Of a DNA stretch of 58,349 nt, positions 26,744-43,348 are shown in pieces (the first letter of the stretch is position 1; every line of letters starts with the position of its first letter). This DNA comes from Reclinomonas americana ATCC 50394 (Eukaryota). The stretch is taken from assembly GCA_048213135.1 (NCBI GenBank), contig PS015039.1, positions 279,619-337,967 on the forward strand, written 5' to 3'. The position numbers were made by a program, and so were the translations under genes. Below the pieces are notes generated by a model. That model saw only the letters and a list, made by a program, of their open reading frames with translations. It was not told the DNA's origin and ran no database searches.

Positions 26744-29700
26744 TCAAGCGGCAGTCGAGCAGTCGGCGCCCTTCCAGCCAGCGTTGCAAATGCAGGCACC
26801 AGAACCCGAGCAGCGACCGCGACCTATGCAGACGCGATCAGTGAGTGACAACACTCAGGCCGCTAACCACACAAACAGCCACTCTTCACCATTGCACGAC
26901 TCCACAGGGCGGCAGCCACCTGCGCAAACAGACACGACCGTCAGTGGCTACTCACAGCAAGCATCTCACTGGGAGGTGACGCAACAGTTGGGGCCTCCAA
27001 TACCCGCGTAACAGCGGCAACGTCCGGCCACGCATTGGCTGCATACACACAAACAAACACACACACGGACAGCGAAGCAGACCGTCAGCAGCAACCCCCG
27101 ATAAACATTGCAATTGGACCACCCACCCACTGCAAACAAAACAGTCACAACTGAGTAAGCCACTGCGTGAGAAGACAAGGAGCAATTCGCTAGACGACGC
27201 AACTTGTACAAGCTGGCGTTCGCACTCCACGGACCATTGCACTGCGGGTCACTCGTACACACCGCCGGCGAAATAATCACCGACTCGTCGCGCGGAACAA
27301 CAAACACGTCGCGGCTGGCGACGATCGCGGAGCCCGACGGCGCAGCATGCGCTTGCACGCGGTTCAGTGTCTTGAAGGTGACGNNNNNNNNNNNNNNNNN
27401 NNNNNNNNNNNNNNNNNNNNNNNNNNNNNNNNNNNNNNNNNNNNNNNNNNNNNNNNNNNNNNNNNNNNNNNNNNNNNNNNNNNNNNNNNNNNNNNNNNNN
27501 NNNNNNNNNNNNNNNNNNNNNNNNNNNNNNNNNNNNNNNNNNNNNNNNNNNNNNNNNNNNNNNNNNNNNNNNNNNNNNNNNNNNNNNNNNNNNNNNNNNN
27601 NNNNNNNNNNNNNNNNNNNNNNNNNNNNNNNNNNNNNNNNNNNNNNNNNNNNNNNNNNNNNNNNNNNNNNNNNNNNNNNNNNNNNNNNNNNNNNNNNNNN
27701 NNNNNNNNNNNNNNNNNNNNNNNNNNNNNNNNNNNNNNNNNNNNNNNNNNNNNNNNNNNNNNNNNNNNNNNNNNNNNNNNNNNNNNNNNNNNNNNNNNNN
27801 NNNNNNNNNNNNNNNNNNNNNNNNNNNNNNNNNNNNNNNNNNNNNNNNNNNNNNNNNNNNNNNNNNNNNNNNNNNNNNNNNNNNNNNNNNNNNNNNNNNN
27901 NNNNNNNNNNNNNNNNNNNNNNNNNNNNNNNNNNNNNNNNNCCACCACGTTGTAGCCCTCCACGTCCGTGCGCACATGTTTGAACCACGGATTCGCACCC
28001 CACGCGCTATACAGCGAAGTGAGCTGCACCAGGGACGCTGAAGACATAAACATTACGTTAGTCTCGACAGGAAACACACGAGCGTCTCACTCGTCCTGTC
28101 GTAGCGTACCGAACGACGCGCTCGTCTTCAGACCAGCGAGCTGCACGAACACAATAATCTCAGCTGAGCATCACTGTATCTCTCTCTCTCTCTCGCAGTC
28201 CTCTCTGTCACGCACCACAGCATCAGTCGTGGCGTCCAGCAACGCACCGGGCACCGAATACGACAGCTTGTTGCGCAACTGCGGGCGGATGGTGTCGGCC
28301 AGTTGGTCGGCAGTCGCCGGCTTGCGACCGCTGGTCTGCATGGCGACGAGCATGAGCGTTTGGGAGAGGAAGGAAGTCACGCTCACTTCAAAGAAAAGTG
28401 GGAGAGAGAGAGAGAGAGAACTGTCTATCTCTTCAGGTGCGCAACACAGTATTTCCCCTATCAGCCACATCTTCTCCACGCTCACTCTCCCCCCTCTACT
28501 ACTCCCACGGTATTTGTGTCGAAACGCAACGAAATCAAACATCGGCACATACATGCTGATGTTACCGATGTTCGGCACCGGAATGGTGAATGGGAACGAC
28601 ACCAGCGGCAACAAGGACGCAGGCGCTGTCAAGTTGAGGAAGGAAGCGTTCGAGGTGCTGCTCATGCCCGGCGTGACAAACTCGACGCCCACTGCCGCCA
28701 CCGACGGGTCGGTGGCCTTGCTGAAGTCGTCATACAGCTGCGAGGGAGAAGGAGAGAAAGTAGGAGACTTGAGACAAGAGAAGTGAGATCTACACCAGAG
28801 CGTGGGCGCAACATGAGCAGCCACCGCTGAATGCAAGTCGCCAGTCAGCACCACCAGGTTCTTCACACCGGTCTGACGCACGTAGCCGAGAATGTCGGCA
28901 CGCTCAGTCGCATAGCCGTCCCACCCATCTACGAAGCAAGAGCACACACACAAAAGTGAATACACGGCAGCGTGTTGCGACACTGCCATTCTTGCTCGTA
29001 CAAACCAGCTGAGAACAAGAACAGCGACAGGTACGGTCCAAGAGTGGCTTTCTGTCCAGTGGCAGCGAGCGCCTGCGAGTTGATCTTGTTCTGACGAATG
29101 TCGGGCTCGATGTAGCCGAACGCGATCGCATTCGCTGCAGCCTGTGCCTTCTGCGTCGGTGCAGCAGTGGCCGCATTGAAGGCTGCCACCGCCACTCCCG
29201 CCTGCGTTGCAGTCAGACCAGCGGCGACGGCAGCAGCCGTTGCATCGCCGGCAGTCGCCGTGGCCACCGCAATCGCTCCGGCTGCTGCCGCGGCCGTGCT
29301 CTGTGTGGCACCAGCAAAGCTAGCAGCCACAATCGTCGCTGCCACTGGCTCTGGAAGCATGAATGCTGCGGCAGCGTTGGTGATGGACGTGGTCAGCGAC
29401 GGCACGCTCTGCAGTGCCACCAGTGTGGCCACAGCACGGAGGGCATTGATCTCGTTGCGTGCCACAATGACTTCGTTTCCCCACAGGCGCCAAATGGCAG
29501 ATGAGTTCGAGAGCTGCGACTTGAGCCACTCGCGCTGCGGCTTGCCGAGCATGGTAGTGAGCGCGAGCGGATCGTTGGGGTTCAGCGCCGTCGCCTTGGC
29601 GATCAACGCGGCTTCAGCGGCAGCGCGGAGTGCATCGTCGACAACCTGACGTGAGCCTACGCTTCCAATTTCTTGGCCAGTGAGCGGGTTGATGGTGGTC

Positions 29701-31379
29701 TCCGGAATAGTCTGCGCAAGCACAGTGCTGTGAGCTGCAGAGAAAAGAGAAGGAAAATAGTGTGCGTGCGTGCTCTCTCTCTCTCTCTCTGTGTATGTGC
29801 ACGTGGATGGGTGTACTGTAACGTACATGATCCGAGCAATAGACACGCGAGTCCGTGACAAACAGGTGAGCGAGGTTGCCGACTGCGATACATGTGTGAG
29901 ACAACGTCTTTCTCAACGCAACATGCCGGACAGGTGCGTACGCAACACAAAAAGTCGCGATAGATGCGCACAACGTCGTAGCTGTCGGGGTTGCTGGTGT
30001 CGAGGACAACATCGGCCGGCGTGAACTCGAACCACGCTGTGGAGGCCGAGCGCCGGCGTTGCGGCACCGCTGGATTCGAGTTCGGGTACGTGTCATGATC
30101 CATCCAGCCGTCATTGGAGAACTCGTGGTCGTCCCAGCTGCGACAACAAAGTATCACGATCAGCGAGAGCGAATAGAGGAAATCAAGTCCCAACGCAACA
30201 TGACGATGAATGGGAAGTACTCGTGTGCGCGCTGCAGGCGTGCATCGGTGCGGTATGTGGCGTACAGGGTGCGGAAGTCTTCCAGCGTATCTCTGCATCA
30301 CGCACGTGTGCTGGAGTGAGTCGCGACAGTACCCTGTGCACATGGAGCAGGAGAGATAGCAAAAACGCACGCGCGGTACGGGTTTGTGCCGTCAACGTCG
30401 GCCAAGTCACCCACGCCGTTCGGCAGCAAGAACGGCGGATGCGCAGCTTCGCCAGTGGGGTTCTGTGAACGACAATAAGAAGCTGAATGAAACACACGCT
30501 ACTTGCAAGAGAACACACCGTTGCGGAGCCAATTGTCGGGCTGCAACGAGAAAAAGGAGGAGACAAGGGAGAAGAATGTCAGTCTTTCTCTCACTCTTCC
30601 CTCACGCACGGTTTCTTGCACCACCGCACGCAACTACTCGTAAATGTAGTCACCCAGATGCAGCACGAAATCGACATCGCGCTCGTTGTCGACAAGATCC
30701 GTGTAGCCGCCCCAGTGATTGTCGGACCAGTCCTGGCAAGTGATCATCGCAACCTTCAGCCGCGACACTGCGCTGGATCCAGGCGACGGGAATGTCTTGA
30801 AGCGGCCGACCTGTGAAAATGTAGGAAGTGTTACGTGAGCAGAGAACTCATTCTACCGCTCACAGCTCGTGACGCACTCGAGACAGCACGCTGCCGGCCT
30901 GGAATTGATAGTAGTACGTGGTGTTAGGCTGCAGATTGGTGACCTTCTGCCGCGCGGTCATGTGGAGAGAGCTCGACGCGGTGACCTTGAGGTCGACAAC
31001 AAACGGGCCGACCAGTGCCGCACTGCACACATGCACCAGAAATGATGATCCGTGAGTGCAGGTACAGCAGGGAGACCCATGCTCCGTCGCAACTTGCTCT
31101 CCATGCTGCCGGCGTTGGCAGCAGTGCTGCTCACGCGCAGTGAAATCGAGACACTCGACAGGACGGGCAGTGGGCCGGCGGCGGGCGCATCGAGAGGCAC
31201 CACGCGTGCCCACAAGACGGCACTGTTGTGTGTCGGGTCGCCCGAGGCCACACTTTGCGGGAACTGCAAAGAAGACACGCGCGTGCGTGGTCAGCTGAGT
31301 GATGAGTGGAAAGGAAGGGTGATCGTATCGAGGCACACTCACCTTCCAGTTGCTGCCAGTGGCGTCGGGAGTCGGTGGT

Positions 31380-32679: not shown

Positions 32680-35600
32680 TCAGCGCCGAGTCTTCGGCGA
32701 CGACTGGGGCAGCAACGAAATGTCGGCGAATCCGCAGTTCTTGCACGCGGAGAGGCCATGGTGTGCGATCTCATCGCGGCATTCGATGGGAATCGCGGTC
32801 TGCGTGTTGCCGCAACGTGGGTTCGTGTGCCACTTGCGACCGGTTGGAGTACGGTAGATGACGATGGCCGGGCGCGACGGTGGTGTCATGGGAGTTGTCG
32901 GCTGCTCCGGCAAGCGGGCTGCCGGTGCCGGCGACGTGACCACTGTCACACGAGTTTAGCAAGTGAAAAATACGCAGCAAGANNNNNNNNNNNNNNNNNN
33001 NNNNNNNNNNNNNNNNNNNNNNNNNNNNNNNNNNNNNNNNNNNNNNNNNNNNNNNNNNNNNNNNNNNNNNNNNNNNNNNNNNNNNNNNNNNNNNNNNNNN
33101 NNNNNNNNNNNNNNNNNNNNNNNNNNNNNNNNNNNNNNNNNNNNNNNNNNNNNNNNNNNNNNGCACACACAGAATGTAGAGATTACGAAACTGGTGGTGG
33201 CGACACTGGCACTGCGACGGCCCTCCTCCAGCTCGGCCCTCATGCGACGCTCCTCTTCCAGCTCAGCCTTCATGCGATCGTACTCGCTCTTCCACGAGTG
33301 TGCAATCTCTACCGCTTCCTCTGCACACACACGCACACGTAAGGTGCCTGAATGCCAATCAAAGAATTGGTATACACGCACTGTGGCGACGGCGGAGTTC
33401 GATGTTCTCTGCCGAGACTTCGCGGACACGGCCTGCATCGTTTGCCAGTGAGCGCGTGGATCGCAGTAAAGAGAACATCGACGAATTAGCATCACATACC
33501 ACGCTGCGTCTCAAGATCGGCACCTGCCTCCGTCGCGCGCACTGCAAAGGTAAGCACATTCAGCAACCGACCGTCTACCTGCACAAACCCCGAGACACCA
33601 ACCCTTCCACATTTCGGCATGCTGCTTGGCCTCATCTGTATGGTTGCACGCCATCATTAGACAAAGAGAGTTGGACACGGGATAACTGCGACCGCCTGTG
33701 GGCCAACGCACCACGGTCGCGGACGAGATCTTCTTGACGAGCTGCGCCACCAGCACACGCCCCGTGTTAGTCATCTGTTGCATGCATGCATGCATGAGAG
33801 AGCGTGCGGAGACTGCTCACCTTGCGACGCCTCGTAATTCTCAGTGATTTTGGCAAGTTGCGCTGTTGGGGAGTACACGTGGTTGGCAAGAAGGAAACCA
33901 CAAGGAACAACAGCCAGTTATGCGGGACGCACACTTCAGCACTTGCTCCTCGGCTGTTTCGCAATCGAGAGGAAGTGACAGCTAAGAATCCAAAAGAGCA
34001 ACGAAAGAGCACGCCTGACATCAACATACCACGCCNNNNNNNNNNNNNNNNNNNNNNNNNNNNNNNNNNNNNNNNNNNNNNNNNNNCTCAAGAGAACAGT
34101 GAGCTCCGTCACCTTGTGCAAGCGCTCCGCGACGAGGTGGAGATTCTGCATGCGACTGTGGCCATGCATCAGCATCAGGAGCAAGGTGCGGTACTGATTC
34201 GCTGCACCGTTGGTGACGAGTAACTCGGCTCACCTTGGTGTCGCGTGTTCGGCGAATAGATAATTCGCGAAGGCACACTGGTGCATTAGTGCTGCGTTAA
34301 TCGTGAGACATGATGTGTTGTCCTGCTCACCGATTCTGTTCTATACAGAGATCCTGGCGTCACTGCAGGAGCGCTTGCTGCAGGCCGAGGGTGCGTGACA
34401 GGCAGCTGGGGATTCCATTCGTTTCCATGTACTGATACTGGTCGATGTACAGGGTCTGTGGAGCGCAAGAATCGCGAGAACGATGATCTGCAGCGTTGCG
34501 TGTGCCTGTTGCCATGAGCCGCCCAGATTGACGCACTTGGTTGGCTCTAACATGTCCTTATGCCGCTGCAGACCGCCTGGCGCAGTCTGAAACAGAAGTG
34601 CGCGACCTGAAAGGTACATACATATACGTGTGCGTGTACCGCCAGTCCGTACTCTCGTCTGCTCACTCACCTCGACTCTCACAGCCGAGCTGGAGACCGT
34701 CATTCGTAATCNNNNNNNNNNNNNNNNNNNNTAAGCTGGCGGACCTGTGATAGTCGACAGAGGAGGGTTGAACGCGCTGGGCTCATTCTGCAACAAAAGC
34801 TTTCTGCAATACCGCACCTCGGTCTGCCACAAACATACACGCACATATATAAGGATGAGACAAAATAAAAAGTTGCTTCAAAGTCGGCGACTGCCAAACT
34901 CACCCTCGCCATCTCCGCCACCGTAATCTGCATCGGTCGTCACAGCTGGTGGGCAACAAAAATGCACACGGCAACAAGCGATGAACAACACTCACCGTCT
35001 TGCGAGTAGCTGGAGAGCTCGCAGCCTGCGCCAAGTCACGGTCCTGCAAACACGCATTTCTCAGAAAAGTGCGATGAGAAACAGGGAGAGAGAGGTGCGT
35101 GGACGAACCAGTGTGCGCTGACGCTGCACCGCAGCACCGCTTGCTGAGCGAACACGTGGCTGTGCGCAACACAAGCTGCATGAGCAACATTTACGCTGCG
35201 CACCGAAAGACACCCACGTACCGAGCGACGGACAGTGTTTGTCGCAGTCGGCGAGATCTCCATGGTGTTGGCCTGTGGCTCGCCAGTATAAGCGCACACA
35301 TCACATGCACCATGGATCCGACTCCGACAACTCACCGCCGCATCGTCCATCGGTTCACCGACGACACTACCCGAGCGAGAAATGGACACGAAGCGCTGCA
35401 CATCCATGGCACGCGGATCAATGCTGACGCAGAAAACCTGCCACATCGCGCGCGCGTGAGCCAGAGACTTCACGGAAAGGAGAGAAGCGCACAGGGATGC
35501 ACACCGTCTGCACTCGAGGCATCGGCTCGTTGACAAAGCCGGTGAGCAGACGCATGACATCGTGGCGGAATGGACGGTTGGCCTCCGTCTGCGCCTCGTG

Positions 35601-37030
35601 CATGCGGTGCACCTCGTAGAACAGTTCCGCACGGAACGCACTGTCGGCTCCTGCAATGGTGGATGAGCATCGTGCCACACGACCGCGTCGATGACAACAA
35701 GTAGAGACACACCATCTGTGTCGCACACCACGAGATCACTGATTGTTGTGCCGCGCTGGTCCATGTCGGCACTCGTCACTGCAGAGCGATGTGAATGGAG
35801 AGAAGAGTATCGCGATACCGCGTGTCGTGCGTACACAACTCTCAAAGCGCACAGTCACCACGCGATGACGCAGGTGTGCCGTGCGACCGAGCGGTCCGCG
35901 CTTCTGCACGCCAATCTGGCGGATGAGGCTGCGCACACCCGACCAACATCATGATCAGCAACTCGCTTGTCTAATAGGTCTGCGCGACAATCTACCGACC
36001 TCTTTGCCGTCTTGGGAGTCAGCGAGGTGAACTCGACGACCGCTGCCTCTCGTGCGCCCTTGTGCACAAAGGCAGGCCACTCGGCTGAGCTCAGCACCGG
36101 GCGCACCGGAACAAACGGCAGCTCATCCTGCAGCAATGACGAATAAGAAGAACACCGGGCGCCCCCTCACACTACCAGCAGCACCGCATGCGCACCTGCT
36201 GCCCGATGGTCAGGAGCTCGTAGGAGAAGCGCGAGGGCTGACCGACAGCATCGACTGCCAGCACCGACACCTGCTCACACATGCATCAGCTCACAAGTGT
36301 ACAGCCCACACCGACAAGAGCTCCCCCCCATGTGTACGCAACGCTCTGCACGCGCTCCGACGCCAGCATGCGATCCACAATCCGGCAGACGACTCCTGCA
36401 TCCGGCTGACCCACTGCTCCATACAACTGATCGGTCTTGCCCGTGCGGACTCCACCAATGCTCATCAGCATGACACGGGCCGGTTCTGCAGCACAAAGCC
36501 ACTCGACAGAGCGCGTCACCAGTGCCTGCCGGTCGGTATGCACGAATGCGGGAGGAGGAGAAGACGATGAGGAAGGAGATGATTGCATTGGCGCGAAAAT
36601 CACAAAATGCACATTATGTTCCGCAACTGTGGCATCGTCGGCCTCGTCGGTGGTCTTGTGTGCCGGGGAGACCCACATGTGCAGGTGCGGGCACTCTGGA
36701 ACCTCCAATAGCTCGCCCATGTGTTGCTGCGCTGTCAACTCCTTCTGCGAACCAATGGAACATGTGCGACTGACGTGCTTATTGCGACGCACAGAGTCGC
36801 GGACGTGAGTGGGTGGGCGGTCGAGCGCAGCCATCTCCACCTTGGTGCGGCGGCTGGGAGTGAGAGACTGTGCACAAGTGTGAGTGCAATAGGGGACATG
36901 GCATGTCGAGTGCGTGCAGTGCCCGCGAAACTTGCATCATTGCCGGGCGAAGTGGGGAGCGGTTGTTGGGGCTGGCCATCGGCGCATTAGCGGCGGCAGA
37001 GAGCGGCGACGAGTCACTCGCGGAGGCCAT
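32680..37030 (-). CDS. Degenerate kinesin-motor-like P-loop protein + coiled coil + C-terminal Ada-like Zn-binding motif, copy 1 (34087-34711 assembled inverted)
   Basis: VMLMSIGGVRTGKTDQLYG..AGVVCRIVDRML fits kinesin TIFAYGQTGSGKT.TM.G..GIIPR; RPFRHDVMRLLTGF resembles HIPFRDSKLTRLL; heptad exons follow; tail IYRTPTGRKWHTNPRC..GLSACKNC. Confidence 0.65.
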
Positions 37031-37210
37031 TTTGTTGTGACGGAAAACGGGAGTTGTCCGTCTTGTCCTTCCGTCGATGCACATCTAATCCGTCCACTCG
37101 GAACGCTGTGGCACAAGGAATATGACAGATTTATGAAGTCGCTGAGTATCATTAAGACGTGCACATACAGCACAGTTCACGATCGCGCACAGTGACCGCA
37201 GCGACAGAAT

Positions 37211-39412
37211 TCAACGTCGACGCCGAGGCAGTGAATCAAGGACGCGGGAATCCCAACAGTGCGTGCACGTGTCGGCACTCGCGATCTCGTCACGGCAAGT
37301 GATCGTGACGGGAATCGGGTGCCTCGTGTTGCGACAATCCGGAATCATGTGGTACTTGCTGCCGTATTGAGTGAAGTAGACTTCCACAGCCTCTTCCTCC
37401 TCCTCGTCATCCGAGCCGTACTCCCGCTGCTCGCGATCGGCTAGCGCTCTTGTAGGACGCTCCTCGCTCAGCTTCGTCTTCGTGCGTCGGTACTTGCTCT
37501 TCCACAAACGTGCCTCGTTCCCTGCCTCCACTGCATGCACACACACATGAGGTTCCTGTCCTGGGTAAATGCGGAAGACAGTTGTTACGCACGAAGACGA
37601 CAATAGAGATCGTCGCTCTCTTCTGTGAGTCTGTGGACATCAGCGGCGCTGTCTTCAGCCTGCTGTACGGCAAAATCTGAATGGTTATAAATCCACACAT
37701 CAGGCATGAATCGAAAGCTGAGGAACGACTCGCGCACGCGCAGGTGCGGGCACACCTCGTTCACGGGCGAGATTCAGCAGTCGCGCTGTACCACAAACAC
37801 ATATCCAAGTTGGCCATCCGTACGCGTTACGTGAACTTGATAGTAAAGTGTGTGGGAAGTACGCACCTTGCGACGCCTCACGCTCCTTGGCGGCTTGGGC
37901 CAGTCGCGCTGTGGTGAGTACACGTGATGCGCTTTAGTCGAACGCATACAAGGAACAGAGCAATATAATAAAAACAGTTTCGCGACGCGCAACACACACA
38001 GACCATTCAGCTCGCGAACTTCCGATTCTTGACGTGCTGTTCCAACATAATTATAAGACACATGCACGTTAGTGGTCTGTTGCATGCAAGCCGACTGCGT
38101 GCACGAGGTGCTCACCTTGCGACGCTTCACGCTCCTGGGCGGCTTGGACCAGCTGCGCTGTGGGAGTACACGTGATACGCGTTAGTCATGCGCACGAACA
38201 CAGCACCAATAACTTCGCGGAGGCGAAGTACACGCAGACCTTGTTGCAGCCTGTGCACATACGACTTGAATTGCTCTGACAGGTCCATGTTGGCGGACAG
38301 TTGCATGCAAAACAAAGCGCGTGCGGCAAGTACGCACCTTGCAACGCCTCACGCTCCTGGGCGGCTTGGACCAGCTGCGCTGTGGGAGTACACGTGATAC
38401 GCGTTAGTCATGCGCACGAACACAGCACCAATAACTTCGCGGAGGCGAAGTACACGCAGACCTTGTTGCAGCCTGTGTACATACGACTTGAATTGCTCTG
38501 ACAGGTCCATGTTGGCGGACAGTTGCATGCAAAACAAAGCGCGTGCGGCAAGCTTAAGTACGCACCTTGCAACGCCTCACGCTCCTTGGCGGCTTGGGCC
38601 AGTCGCGCTGTGGGGAGTACACGTGATGCGCTTTAGTCGAACGCATGCATGGAACAGAGCAACAATTGTTTCGCGACGCGCAACACACGCAGACCATTCA
38701 GCTCGCGCACTTCCGACTCGGATTTCTTCTGACGCACTGCACCAACACAGACACACATGCACGTGAGTGGTCTGTTGCATGCAAGCCAGACTGCGTGCGC
38801 GAGATGCTCACCTTGTGACGCCTCACGCTCGTTGGCGGCTTGGGCCAGTTGTGCTGTGGGGAGTACACGTGATACGCTTTAGTCGAACGCATGCATGGAA
38901 CAGAGCAACAATAGCTTCGCGACGCGCAACACACACACACACCATTCAGCTCGCGAACTTCCGATTCTTTACGTGCTGTTCCAACATAAGACACACATGC
39001 ACGTTAGTGGTCCGTTGCATGCAAGCCAGACTGCGTGCGGCAGTACGCACCTTGCGACGCCTCACGCTCCTTGGCGGCTTGGGCCAGTCGCGCTGTGGGG
39101 AGTACACGTGATGCGCTTTAGTCGAACGCATGCATGGAACAGAGCAACAATTGTTTCGCGACGCGCAACACACACAGACCATTCAGCTCGCGAACTTCCG
39201 ACTCGGATTTCTTCTGACGCACTGCACCAACACAGACACACATGCACGTGAGTGGTCTGTTGCATGCAAGCCAGACTGCGTGCACGAGGTGCTCACCTTG
39301 TGACGCCTCACGCTCGTTGGCGGCTTGGGCCAGTTGTGCTGTGGGGAGTACACGTGATACGCTTTAGTCGAACGCATGCATGGAACAGAGCAACAATTAT
39401 TTCGCGAGGCGC

Positions 39413-39448
<36 letters not shown>

Positions 39449-42400
39449 ATTCAGCTCGCGNNNNNNNNNNNNNNNNNNNNNNNNNNNNNNNNNNNNNNNN
39501 NNNNNNNNNNNNNNNNNNNNNNNNNNNNNNNNNNNNNNNNNNNNNNNNNNNNNNNNNNNNNNNNNNNNNNNNNNNNNNNNNNNNNNNNNNNNNNNNNNNN
39601 NNNNNNNNNNNNNNNNNNNNNNNNNNNNNNNNNNNNNNNNNNNNNNNNNNNNNNNNNNNNNNNNNNNNNNNNNNNNNNNNNNNNNNNNNNNNNNNNNNNN
39701 NNNNNNNNNNNNNNNNNNNNNNNNNNNNNNNNNNNNNNNNNNNNNNNNNNNNNNNNNNNNNNNNNNNNNNNNNNNNNNNNNNNNNNNNNNNNNNNNNNNN
39801 NNNNNNNNNNNNNNNNNNNNNNNNNNNNNNNNNNNNNNNNNNNNNNNNNNNNNNNNNNNNNNNNNNNNNNNNNNNNNNNNNNNNNNNNNNNNNNNNNNNN
39901 NNNNNNNNNNNNNNNNNNNNNNNNNNNNNNNNNNNNNNNNNNNTTGTGCTGTGGGGAGTACACGTGATACGCTTTAGTCGAACGCATGCATGGAACAGAG
40001 CAACAATTGTTTCGCGACGCGCAACACACACAGACCATTCAGCTCGCGCACTTCCGATTCCTGACGTGCTGCTCCAACATAAGACACACATTCACGTTGG
40101 TGGTCCATTGCATGCAAGCCAGATCTAAAGTGTGTGCACGAGATGCTCACCTTGTGACGCCTCACGCTCCTTGGCGGCTTGGGCCAGTCGCGCTGTGGGG
40201 AGTACACGTGATGCGCTTTAGTCGAACGCACGCATGGAACAGAGCACCAATAGCTTCGCGAGGCGCAACACACACAGACCATTCAGCTCGCGCACTTCCG
40301 ACTCGGATTCCTTTTGACGTGCTGCACCAACACAGACACACATTCACGTTGGTGATCTGTTGCATGCAGGCCAGAGTGCGTACATGAGGTGCTCACCTTG
40401 CGACGCCTCACGCTCCTGGGCGGCTTGGGCCAGTCGCGCTGTGGGAGTACACGTNNNNNNNNNNNNNNNNNNNNGCACGAGGTGCTCACCTTGCGACGCC
40501 TCACGCTCCTTGGCGGCTTCGGCGAGTTGCGCTGTGGGGAATACACGTGGTATGCTAAATGAGCAGCCGACAGCGCGGACCGGTGACACACGTACAAATG
40601 AATATACCTTTCAAGTCGCGCACTTCCGTTTCAGACTGCGCCAGGCGGTCTGCAGCGGCATAAGGACATGTTAGAGCCAACCAAGTGCGTCAATCTGGGC
40701 GGCTCATGGCAACAGGCACACGCAACGCTGCAGATCATCGTTCTCGCGATTCTTGCGCTCCACAGACCCTGTACATCGACCAGTATCAGCACATGGAAAC
40801 GAATGGAATCCTCAGCTGCATGTCACGCACCCTCGGCCTGCAGCAAGCGCTCCTGCAGTGACGCCAGGATCTCTGTATAGAACAGAATCGGTGAGCAGGA
40901 CAACACATCATGTCTCACGATTAACGCAGCACTAATGCACCAGTGTGCCTTCGCGAATTATCTATTCGCCGAACACGCGACACCAAGGTGAGCCGAGTTA
41001 CTCGTCACCAACGGTGCAGCGAATCAGTACCGCACCTTGCTCCTGATGTTGATGCATGGCCACAGTCGCATATGCATGCAGAATCTCCACCTCGTCGCGG
41101 AGCGCTTGCACAAGATGACGGAGCTCACTGTTCTCCTGGGTAAGCTGGCGGACCTGTGATGGTCGACAGAGGAGGGTTGAACGCGCTGGACTCATTCTGT
41201 AACAACAGCTTTCTGCAATACCGCACCTCGGTCTGCCACAAACAAACACGCACATATATAAGGATGAGACAAAATAAAGTTGCTTCAAAGTCGGCGACTG
41301 CCAAACTCACCCTCGCCATCTCCGCCACTGTAATCTGCATCGATCACCACAGTTTATGGGTAACAAGAATGCACTCGGCAAAAGGCGATGAACGAGTCTT
41401 ACCGTCTTGCAAGTAACCCGATCTGGAGAGCTTGCAGCCGGGTCAGGAGAGCTTGCAGCCTGGTCAAAGTCATCCTCCTGCGAACACATATTACTCAGAA
41501 AAATGAGACGGAAAAGAGAGAGATTCGGATGAACCAGTGTGCGCTGACGCCGCACTGGATCATCGCCTGCTGGCGATGACCTCTCCATCGCGATCGTGCC
41601 AGCCTGTGGCTCGCCAGTGTAAGCGCACGCACCACATGCACCATGGATCCGACTCCGACAACTCACTGCTGCATCGTCCATCGGTTCACCGATCGCGACG
41701 ACACTACCCGAGCGAGAACTGGACACGAAGCGCTGCACATCCATGGCGCGCGTATCGGTGCTGACGCAGAAAACCTGCCACATCGCGCGCGCGTGAGCAA
41801 GAGACTTCACGGAAAGGAGAGAAGCGCACAGGGATGCACACCGTCTGCACTCGAGGCATCGGCTCGCTGACAAAGCCGGTGAGCAGATCCACGACATCGT
41901 GACAGTACGGACGGATGGCCTCCGTCTGCGCCTCGTGCATGCAGTGCACTTCATGAAATAGCGCAGCACGGAACGCACTGTCGGCTCCTGCAATGGTGGA
42001 TGAGCATCGTGCCACACGACCGCGTCGATGACAACAAGTAGAGACACACCATCTGTGTCGCACACCACGAGATCACTGATTGTTGTGCCGCGCTGGTCCA
42101 TGTCGGCACTCGTCACTGCAGAGCAATGTGAATAGAGAGAAGATCTAGAGTACCGCGATACCGCGTGTCGCGCGCACGCAACTCTCAAAGCGCACAGTCA
42201 CCACGCGATGACGCAGGTGTGCCGTGCGACCGAGCAGTCCGCGATTCTGCACGCCAATCTGGCGGATATCATCGATGAGGCTGCGCACACCCGACCACCA
42301 AACTCAGCAACTCGCATGCCTAATAGGTCTGCGCGACAATCTACCGACCTCTTTGCCGTCTTGGGAGTCAGCGAGGTGAACTCGACGACCGCTGCCTCTC

Positions 42401-43348
42401 GTGCGCCCTTGTGCACAAAGGCAGGCCACTCGGCAGAGCTCAGCACCGGGCGCACCGGAACAAACGGCAGCTCATCCTGCAGCAATGACGAATAAGAAGA
42501 ACACCGGGCGCCCCCTCACACTACAAGCAGCACCGCATGCGCACCTGCTGCCCGATGGTCAGGAGCTCGTAGGAGAAGCGCTTTGGCTGACCGACAGCAT
42601 CGACTGCCAGCACCGACACCTGCTCACACATGCATCAGCTCACAAGTGTACAGCCCACACCGACAAGAGCTCCCCCCCATGTGTACGCAACGCTCTGCAC
42701 GCGCTCCGACGCCAGCATGCGATCCACAATCCGGCAGACGACTCCTGCATCCGGCTGACCCACTGCTCCATACAACTGATCGGTCTTGCCCGTGCGGACT
42801 CCACCAATGCTCATCAGCATAACACGGGCTGGCTCTGTAGCACAAAGCCACTCGACAGAGCGCGTCACCAGCGCCTGCCGATATATGAATATTTGAATTG
42901 TTGTGCAGAAAAACGGAACAATAATGCACAATCATGTTCCGCAACTGTGGCGTCGTCGGCCTCGTCGGTGGTCTTGTGTGCCGGGGAGACCCACATGTGC
43001 AGGTGCGGGCATTCTAGAACCTCCAGCAACTTGGATTTAGCCGGTTCTAAATCCAACCCGGTAACCTTAGCGCACGAACGCATGACGAGCTCTTTGCGTC
43101 GAGCAGACTCGCGGACGTGAGTGGGCGTGTACTCGGGGGCAGCAACCCCCACCTTGGTGTGACTCCTAGGGGTGCGTGGCTGCAAAAAGTGGGATTGTGA
43201 GTGTGATGTCGCGATCGGAAAAGTGACATGGCATGTCGAGCGCGTGGAATGCCCGCGAAACTTGCGCCGCAGCGGAGCGGTCGTTGGGGCTAGCCACCTG
43301 TGCATCAGCGGCGGCGGAGAGCGGCGACGAGTCGCTCGCGGAGGCCAT
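37211..43348 (-). CDS. Tandem paralogue (copy 2) of the degenerate kinesin / coiled-coil / Ada-like Zn gene, with expanded coiled coil
   Basis: 40600-43390 is closely similar to 34087-37080, including introns and the identical GGVRTGKT. Tail VYFTQYGSKYHMIPDC..TCTHC* is homologous to that of copy 1. Confidence 0.65.
37860..40550 (-). repeat. Tandem array of ~220-250 bp exon-intron units (at least 10 visible copies, gapped)
   Basis: CCTTG(C/T)GACGCCTCACGCTC..GGCGGCTTGG.CCAG recurs near 37867, 38116, 38337, 38566, 38811, 39050, 39296, 40150, 40396 and 40490. On the minus strand each copy is an AG/GT-bounded exon encoding ARLAQAAKEREASQ or a variant. Confidence 0.92.

Follow-up and report, generated by a model that had tools for sequence, protein, structure and literature searches.

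The 58,349-nt window analysed here (Reclinomonas americana ATCC 50394, GenBank assembly GCA_048213135.1, contig PS015039.1, positions 279,619 to 337,967 of the forward strand; all coordinates below are those of the window) appears to carry a lineage-specific protein-coding gene of an intron-rich, GC-rich eukaryote as two paralogues in tandem on the minus strand. Each would encode a P-loop-like globular N-terminus, an alpha-helical stalk built from phase 1-1 micro-exons (mostly 42 nt) and a short Cys/His tail, and a cassette of about 246 bp, made up of exons A and B, each followed by an intron, seems to have been multiplied head to tail in paralogue 2. The resulting array is read as a real protein-coding tandem exon-cassette amplification, with a probability of about 0.55; the evidence that it is coding was drawn from the window itself (splice signals, differences between the paralogues and substitutions within the array). 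The two gene models are:

37211-43348, minus strand: paralogue 2 (copy 2), from the ATG at 43348 to the stop codon at 37211; open reading frame (ORF) chain from a dynamic-programming model, tail by hand
32683-37030, minus strand: paralogue 1 (copy 1), from the ATG at 37030 to about 32683; model span

In the model, copy 2 begins with the globular N-terminal part, followed by the coiled-coil micro-exons, then the array and finally the Cys/His tail, and copy 1 has the same architecture with one A/B unit in place of the array. Three types of exon were distinguished within the array: A (ARLAQAAKEREASQ and variants), B (a 42-nt form, B42, of the VRQKKSESEVRELN type and a 33-nt form, B33, of the ARQESEVRELN type) and C (EQFKSYVHRLQQ). 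They alternate as A-B or A-C and are separated by introns of 62-95 nt. The array and its parts, in minus-strand order, are:

37867-40531, minus strand: tandem exon-intron array, 2665 bp as assembled, including 503 N
40490-40531, minus strand: exon A1, 42 nt, AQLAEAAKEREASQ
40455-40474: 20-N gap, with an intron-1-type start before it and an intron-2-type end after it
40397-40438, minus strand: exon A2, 42 nt, ARLAQAAQEREASQ
40280-40321, minus strand: exon B1, 42 nt, ARQKESESEVRELN
40151-40192, minus strand: exon A3, 42 nt, ARLAQAAKEREASQ
40036-40068, minus strand: exon B2, 33 nt, ARQESEVRELN
39944-39948, minus strand: exon A4, first 5 nt, cut by the following gap
39461-39943: 483-N gap, about two units long if the gap size is right
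39448-39460, minus strand: partial B exon, last 13 nt, cut by the gap
39297-39338, minus strand: exon A5, 42 nt, AQLAQAANEREASQ
39180-39221, minus strand: exon B3, 42 nt, VRQKKSESEVRELN
39051-39092, minus strand: exon A6, 42 nt
38943-38975, minus strand: exon B4, 33 nt, ARKESEVRELN
38812-38853, minus strand: exon A7, 42 nt
38695-38736, minus strand: exon B5, 42 nt
38566-38607, minus strand: exon A8, 42 nt, ARLAQAAKEREALQ
38462-38497, minus strand: exon C1, 36 nt, EQFKSYVHRLQQ; the codon score disfavours the proposed frame
38338-38379, minus strand: exon A9, 42 nt, AQLVQAAQEREALQ
38240-38275, minus strand: exon C2, 36 nt
38116-38157, minus strand: exon A10, 42 nt
38004-38036, minus strand: exon B6, 33 nt
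37867-37908, minus strand: exon A11, 42 nt, ARLAQAAKEREASQ

Ten A exons are thus complete and one is cut by the 483-N gap; among the B exons six are complete (three of 42 nt and three of 33 nt) and one is cut by the same gap, and there are two C exons of 36 nt each. Because the 20-N gap separates the start of one intron type from the end of the other, at least one B exon must be hidden in it, and the unit count is a lower bound, since both N gaps would hide further exons. The original prediction, made from the letters of the stretch, had counted at least 10 repeats of a two-exon unit in copy 2; eight complete two-exon units were found, and the figure rises to 10-11 if the A exons that have lost their partner to a gap, or have the tail exon in its place, are counted too. 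The partner exons of 33 and 36 nt that it had described are present (three B and two C exons, respectively), and its statement that copy 1 has about one such unit agrees with the single A-like and single B-like exon found there. A 29-nt core of the A exon gave 10 matches at up to three mismatches, all on the minus strand between 37872 and 40523, as against none in 100 shuffles, and Tandem Repeats Finder returned periods of 222 and 246 bp.

The units measure 222-249 bp, are 72-98% identical and can be aligned over exons and introns. The youngest pairs are U4/U6 (98.4%) and U7/U8 (97.7%), most other pairs show 89-93% identity, and C-type units are 72-82% identical to B-type units. As the introns align as well as the exons, amplification took place at the DNA level, cassette by cassette. 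The head-to-tail units with their introns on one strand, and the single cassette of copy 1, are what was expected from the tandem exon-intron amplification put forward originally. Judged from the unit identities, part of this amplification is recent. The cassettes probably multiplied by unequal recombination, or by slippage during replication, between short introns and exons that are nearly identical, and the 9-nt deletions and the divergent 36-nt exon would have arisen in the process. If the exons are spliced in, paralogue 2 would have gained a long helical addition relative to the one cassette of paralogue 1; the 18 complete array exons would amount to 239 residues, or a helix of about 36 nm, if all were included.

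Upstream of the array lie a longer exon, E0, and three 42-nt exons, Ea to Ec, which have counterparts in copy 1. Where copy 2 has its array, copy 1 has unique micro-exon candidates of 42, 30, 33, 42 and 42 nt.

41036-41153, minus strand: copy-2 E0, 118 nt, phase 0 to 1, VRQLTQENSELRHLVQALRDEVEILHAYATVAMHQHQEQ
40831-40872, minus strand: copy-2 Ea, 42 nt
40727-40768, minus strand: copy-2 Eb, 42 nt
40608-40649, minus strand: copy-2 Ec, 42 nt
34349-34390, plus strand: copy-1 Ea, 42 nt, EILASLQERLLQAE
34453-34494, plus strand: copy-1 Eb, 42 nt, GSVERKNRENDDLQ
34572-34613, plus strand: copy-1 Ec, 42 nt, HRLAQSETEVRDLK
33821-33862, minus strand: copy-1 A-like exon, 42 nt, AQLAKITENYEASQ
33712-33741, minus strand: copy-1 B-like exon, 30 nt, ARQEDLVRDR, read by eye
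33603-33635 (33 nt), 33500-33541 (42 nt) and 33391-33432 (42 nt), minus strand: further phase 1-1 micro-exons of copy 1, candidates only

The A-like and B-like exons of copy 1, together with the intron between them (homologous to array intron 1, by eye), resemble one array unit; a gap of 51 N (34036-34086) lies just upstream of them. All five 42-nt exons that had been quoted originally (the four of copy 1 and A11) were recovered at their positions with AG/GT flanks and open in phase 1-1. Their translations hold as given except in the first residue of two exons, which is G in the exon at 34453 and H (C+AC), not D, in that at 34572. Exon Ec (HRLAQSETEVRDLK) reads like a hybrid that opens as an A exon (RLAQ) and closes as a B exon (SE.EVR.L.), and comparison of the three suggests that A, B and Ec were all derived from one 14-residue exon.

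Regarding the splice signals, AG acceptors and GT donors flank all 22 tabulated exons. The 20 ungapped introns are 62-163 nt long (median 81), and 18 of them have a CTAAC-like motif 14-32 nt from their 3' end. Donors read GTGAGC or GTGCGT after A exons and GTCTG or GTGTG after B and C exons, acceptors read YAG, and the same signals (GTGCGT...CACAG) delimit an intron of the PhoD-like gene of the window that was placed by protein homology. Every one of the 18 complete array exons is in phase 1-1 and a multiple of three in length, so that gain, loss or skipping keeps the reading frame, as had been proposed. A lone site of the form YAG, 42 open nucleotides and GT with a positive codon score is common (17 on the minus and 16 on the plus strand outside the locus), and weight is therefore placed on the chain of exons, on the heptad signal of the unique exons and on the pattern of substitution.

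That pattern was examined at two levels. Between the paralogues, exons E0 to Ec differ by four substitutions in 240 aligned nucleotides, all four synonymous (p=0.0026, computed with 22.5% of random changes being synonymous); E0 further shows one synonymous change in its upstream extension and a 6-nt in-frame indel. Within the array, the ratio of synonymous to non-synonymous variable sites is 8:8 in the proposed frame and 4:15 and 3:15 in the other frames (Fisher p=0.043; binomial p=0.015). Indels are absent from exon A and of 9 nt only in exon B, whereas those of the introns measure 1, 2, 4-5, 6, 8 and 18 nt. Codon log-odds, from a score trained mostly on PhoD exons, were best in the proposed frame for seven of the eight exons tested. 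The uninterrupted ORFs across the array, on both strands, contained no Pfam family above threshold. Taken together, the substitution and splice-site patterns lend moderate support to translation of the array exons.

In the copy-2 exon E0, the hexamer ATGCAT occurs at 41066-41071 (minus strand) and is missing from copy 1, which places the in-frame two-residue indel at the register shift of E0.

A 42-nt exon corresponds to 14 residues, i.e., to exactly two heptads. The spliced unique part from E0 to A1 (95 residues) has a hydrophobic periodicity of 3.5 residues that none of 500 shuffles reached, and a single heptad register runs across Ea-Eb-Ec-A1 through four exon junctions, in agreement with the proposal of a stalk made of symmetric two-heptad micro-exons. 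The further claim that exon gain or loss leaves the register intact stands for 42-nt exons (A-B42 pairs) and fails for the others, which shift the register by -3 (33-nt exons) or -2 (36-nt exons). A shift of -3, as from each 33-nt exon, is usually termed a 'stutter', and the exons of 33 and 36 nt would place such stutter-like shifts along the array. A two-chain complex prediction for a 39-residue E0 peptide scored 0.14 (mark 0.32) and counts neither way.

Several observations weigh against reading the array as coding. Half of the array exon changes (8 of 16) alter the protein, so that constraint is weak at best; the synonymous tests are based on 4-16 sites and ignore transition bias; and the array exons are conserved no better than the introns (A 90.0% and B 89.9%; introns 88.0% and 93.6%). 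The C exon is the exception to the codon scores, being higher in another frame. Over the whole array the 3.5-residue periodicity is not significant, its power being reached in 75 of 500 shuffles, and half of the positions a and d are polar (L, A, R, S/L and Q, S, V, L); the array may therefore form a weak coiled coil or a single charged helix. Inclusion of the exons is a prediction from DNA, the gene model is crude, with middle exons that differ between the copies, and the assembly is poor right at the array, with two internal gaps and a misoriented contig. Finally, the N-terminal exon yielded no credible homologue among 1.84 billion representatives, and since the homologue searches were empty the gene has no conservation support outside the window.

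Some of these points would equally fit an array that is not translated, either as part of a silent or decaying duplicate or as a minisatellite expanded within what is functionally one long intron, the open frames having been left behind by a recent expansion. The equal conservation of exons and introns, the residue changes at 8 of 16 variable exon sites and the empty homologue searches all favour such an array; open frames could persist by chance in units as young as these (up to 98.4% identity), and the frame of the long copy-1 exon is broken by a 1-nt indel near 42975, in a stretch that begins at about 42980, although use of the GTTGCG donor at 42945 would make the indel intronic (this donor form is also used after exon Eb). 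The synonymous excess, however, is confined to the proposed frame, exon indels come only in multiples of three while intron indels mostly do not, and all 18 complete exons keep an open frame and both splice sites. An intron of 2.8 kb would also lie far beyond the range of 62-163 nt at this locus, and the 44 nt 5' of the ATG are identical in both copies. An untranslated array is rated unlikely, and translated cassettes are preferred.

Translated cassettes could in addition form a working device for tuning stalk length, through changes of copy number between strains or through exon skipping. The array exons, the end of Ec and the start of the first tail exon (T1) are all in phase 1, so that the frame would survive the loss of any subset of exons, or of the whole array; the units, introns included, share 89-98% identity, which makes them a good substrate for unequal exchange, and the paralogues already differ in having one and at least 10 cassettes, respectively. 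The frame symmetry, however, follows automatically from the duplication of a symmetric cassette and is no sign of design. Modularity that is neutral to the register is only partial, given the 33- and 36-nt exons that lose it, and the short introns with uniformly strong signals give no hint of regulated skipping. A tuning function is considered distinctly improbable. Equally speculative is a wider picture, in which the two-heptad exon, as an alpha-helical equivalent of the 54-bp exon of collagen, would be the building block of an entire lineage-specific family of stalk proteins, and the array a ruler of variable copy number. If it were true, the reach of the stalk, attached to a kinesin-like head of degenerate type, would differ between strains or isoforms according to their number of cassettes, and the local supercoil would be set by the 33-nt exons of 11 residues.

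A third explanation holds that the size or order of the array, or the arrangement in two copies, is an artefact of a gapped short-read scaffold. The window contains 16 N gaps, two of them within the array, and one misoriented contig, an (AC)17 run stands at a gap edge, and blocks of 100% identity that include introns could result from gap filling with paralogous reads. On the other hand, all units differ, and variation of this kind is not made up by assemblers; the types of unit come in an orderly sequence; the copies differ in their tails (41% identity) and flanks; and the gaps make the count a lower bound, not an inflated one. The expansion of the array by the assembler had been named originally as a way in which the prediction could fail; alignment of the units showed no two to be identical, so no assembler loop is involved. 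An artefact of this kind is regarded as very unlikely, and the amplified cassettes are taken as a probable feature of the genome. The (AC)17 run (39414-39447) lies in an array intron and adjoins the 483-N gap, where it probably caused the assembly break.

Regarding the relationship of the copies, the 5' halves are 91-100% identical (91-95% in self-BLAST), with blocks of 100% identity that include introns, whereas the 3' halves have diverged, their shared C-terminal Cys/His motif being 41% identical (tblastn, E 8.7e-7). Near-identical or 100% identical blocks (35970-36470 versus 42320-42815, and 34180-34610 versus 40610-41040) are flanked by stretches of 60-77% identity, and could stem from gene conversion between the tandem copies or from gap filling with reads of the other copy. 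In the diverged N- and C-terminal coding parts, the ratio of the proportions of non-synonymous and synonymous differences (pN/pS) lies between 0.53 and 0.64, and indels there (12 and 6 nt) keep the frame. With tails only 41% identical and differing flanks, these are real paralogues and not one locus assembled twice, and haplotypes are ruled out on the same grounds; on sequence comparison, copies 1 and 2 are genuine paralogues in tandem, whose 5' halves have been homogenised while their tails diverged. The 44 nt preceding both ATGs are identical, which puts the boundary of the duplication a short way upstream of the start codon. About 180 bp (37031-37213) separate the copy-2 stop codon from the copy-1 ATG, which leaves very little room for a copy-1 promoter.

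Three of the micro-exons, Ea to Ec of copy 1, had been placed on the plus strand. The gene runs on the minus strand throughout, and these exons sit on an inverted contig of 625 bp:

34087-34711, plus strand: contig of 625 bp with N gaps on both sides (34036-34086 and 34712-34731)

This contig carries exons Ea to Ec of copy 1, part of its E0 and the beginning of another exon (34685-34711). In self-BLAST it matches copy 2 at 40560-41135 in reverse with 95% identity, whereas 34732-35008, just past the N gap, matches copy 2 at 41141-41415 directly. In the alignment, the exons fall into the order of copy 2 once the contig is turned round where it stands, and both junctions are N gaps; the simplest reading of the sequence is therefore a scaffolding error that gave this contig the wrong orientation within copy 1. 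The same two observations led to rejection of the alternatives at 34.1-34.7 kb, a gene of its own or a genuine inverted duplication; a true inversion is a formal possibility. The wrong orientation would break automatic gene models of copy 1.

The dynamic-programming model gives a GT-AG chain of ORFs from the ATG to the stalk in both copies. Within the tails the gene finder reads through the micro-exon introns, and the tail models were therefore made by hand. Both copies contain the P-loop-like motif GGVRTGKT:

36343-36867, minus strand: copy-1 large N-terminal exon, with P-loop-like GGVRTGKT
42692-42874, minus strand: copy-2 P-loop part, with GGVRTGKT

Kinesin motors carry a P-loop of the form GxxxxGK[ST] and the switch I and II motifs. 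By eye, the exons that follow the large N-terminal exon recall a kinesin motor, with no canonical switch motifs recognisable, and the ESM feature matches of the large exon fell into kinesin-motor clusters (score 0.81, below the lead level of 0.9). No match to the kinesin family PF00225 or any other Pfam family was obtained with the N-terminal exons and frames at cut-offs of E<=1 to 10, at which the HMMER filters drop most matches above about 0.1, and kinesins were absent from the PDB sequence matches up to E 10, those listed being at chance level. An AlphaFold2 model of the 175-residue exon, run without an alignment, had a mean predicted local distance difference test (pLDDT) score of 41.7, too poor for a fold search. 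A degenerate kinesin-like head is therefore put forward only tentatively for the N-terminal part. In N-terminal-motor kinesins a P-loop region is followed by a long helical stalk and a small tail, and the copy models have the same order of parts; they differ in lacking a Pfam or PDB match and recognisable switch motifs.

An in-frame ATG GCG AGG (41311-41319 and 34904-34912, both minus strand) abuts a GTGAGT donor one intron upstream of E0. This ATG (41311; 34904 in copy 1) could start a separate stalk gene instead of encoding an internal methionine. That the N-terminal part and the stalk belong to one gene is probable on the models, and confidence in it is held somewhat above even because this ATG stands directly before the donor that precedes E0.

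Downstream of the array, the tail of copy 2 was modelled with three exons, the first of which aligns to the position of the B exon in the last unit:

37754-37785, minus strand: predicted first exon of the tail (T1), ARLLNLARER(G); 32 nt and phase 1 to 0, or 30 nt if the donor at 37755 is used
37593-37662, minus strand: predicted tail exon T2, 70 nt, QAEDSAADVHRLTEESDDLYCRL
37211-37530, minus strand: copy-2 last exon, with the Cys/His motif (..YFTQYGSKYHMIPDCRNT..CRDEIA..C..C..) and the stop codon
32683-32868 (copy 1), paralogous to 37214-37390 (copy 2), minus strand: C-terminal Cys/His motif, from tblastn; pN/pS 0.64

The motif common to both paralogues reads Y.T..G.K[YW]H..P.C.NT...IP..I.CRDEIA....C..C. 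It had no Pfam match and no usable match in the ESM Atlas; the tail may bind zinc.

Regarding relatives elsewhere, word-based searches with the N-terminal exon (longer proteins) and with the tail exon found no homologue. The sole match to the N-terminal exon, P0001, is a Cys/His repeat protein with five short matching stretches and was judged spurious. A metagenome scan with the exact A-exon core gave no matches, tblastn confirmed none of 79 pattern matches as metagenome relatives of the large exon, and a Pfam search with 19 exons or frames of the locus gave none at the curated cut-off.

Growth by duplication of symmetric exons is an old principle, on which a coiled-coil cassette is a variation. 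Fibrillar collagen genes are traced (PMC3308698) to a primordial 54-bp exon of six Gly-X-Y repeats that was duplicated with constant phase. The cassettes described here share with the collagen genes so described an exon that equals a whole number of structural repeats (here two heptads), a constant intron phase and addition that is safe for the frame; they differ in that collagen is a triple helix with ancient duplications over many genes, whereas the present array is young and tandem, with homologous introns, in an orphan gene with predicted exons. The kringle IV type 2 repeat of human LPA is a two-exon cassette with introns, the copy number of which sets protein size (PMC6314250). Both are head-to-tail cassettes of two exons with introns inside one gene, but the LPA unit measures 5.6 kb, encodes a folded kringle and varies between people, while the present one measures about 246 bp and would encode 25-28 helical residues. 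Schistosome micro-exon genes have very short symmetric exons whose skipping keeps the frame (10.1101/2023.06.21.545858). Short symmetric exons (here 30-42 nt, phase 1-1) are common to both systems; the schistosome genes have long introns and encode small secreted flatworm proteins with neither heptads nor an array, whereas introns here are 62-163 nt long and the predicted product is long and helical. A start resembling a signal peptide was not seen by eye in the gene model.

In titin (PEVK) and nebulin, the length of an extended structural protein is set by long series of short, symmetric exons duplicated in tandem; these are animal muscle proteins, and differ from the present case in their structural units and abundant transcripts. 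A literature search, with subscription journals mostly outside its reach and supplements excluded, found no coiled coil made from two-heptad exons or from tandem exon-intron arrays. If expressed, the locus would be an unusually clean and recent case of a fibrous protein growing by duplication of an exon cassette, in which alignable introns and a sister paralogue from before the expansion would allow the rate and mechanism of growth to be measured, as well as the tolerance of splicing and of coiled-coil geometry (stutters from 9-nt deletions). Such arrays also call for caution in annotation, being handled badly by gene predictors and short-read assemblers.

Regarding the remainder of the window, the scaffold has 16 runs of N and a G+C content of 55-59% in the non-gap sequence. 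Rfam and tRNA scans of the whole window gave no matches. Dinucleotide microsatellites and short GT-AG introns are found in it, and its only outside relatives (37-64% identity) are those of a gene for a PhoD-like phosphatase (alkaline phosphatase), which occupies 28636-31263 on the minus strand in at least seven homology-supported pieces split by short introns.

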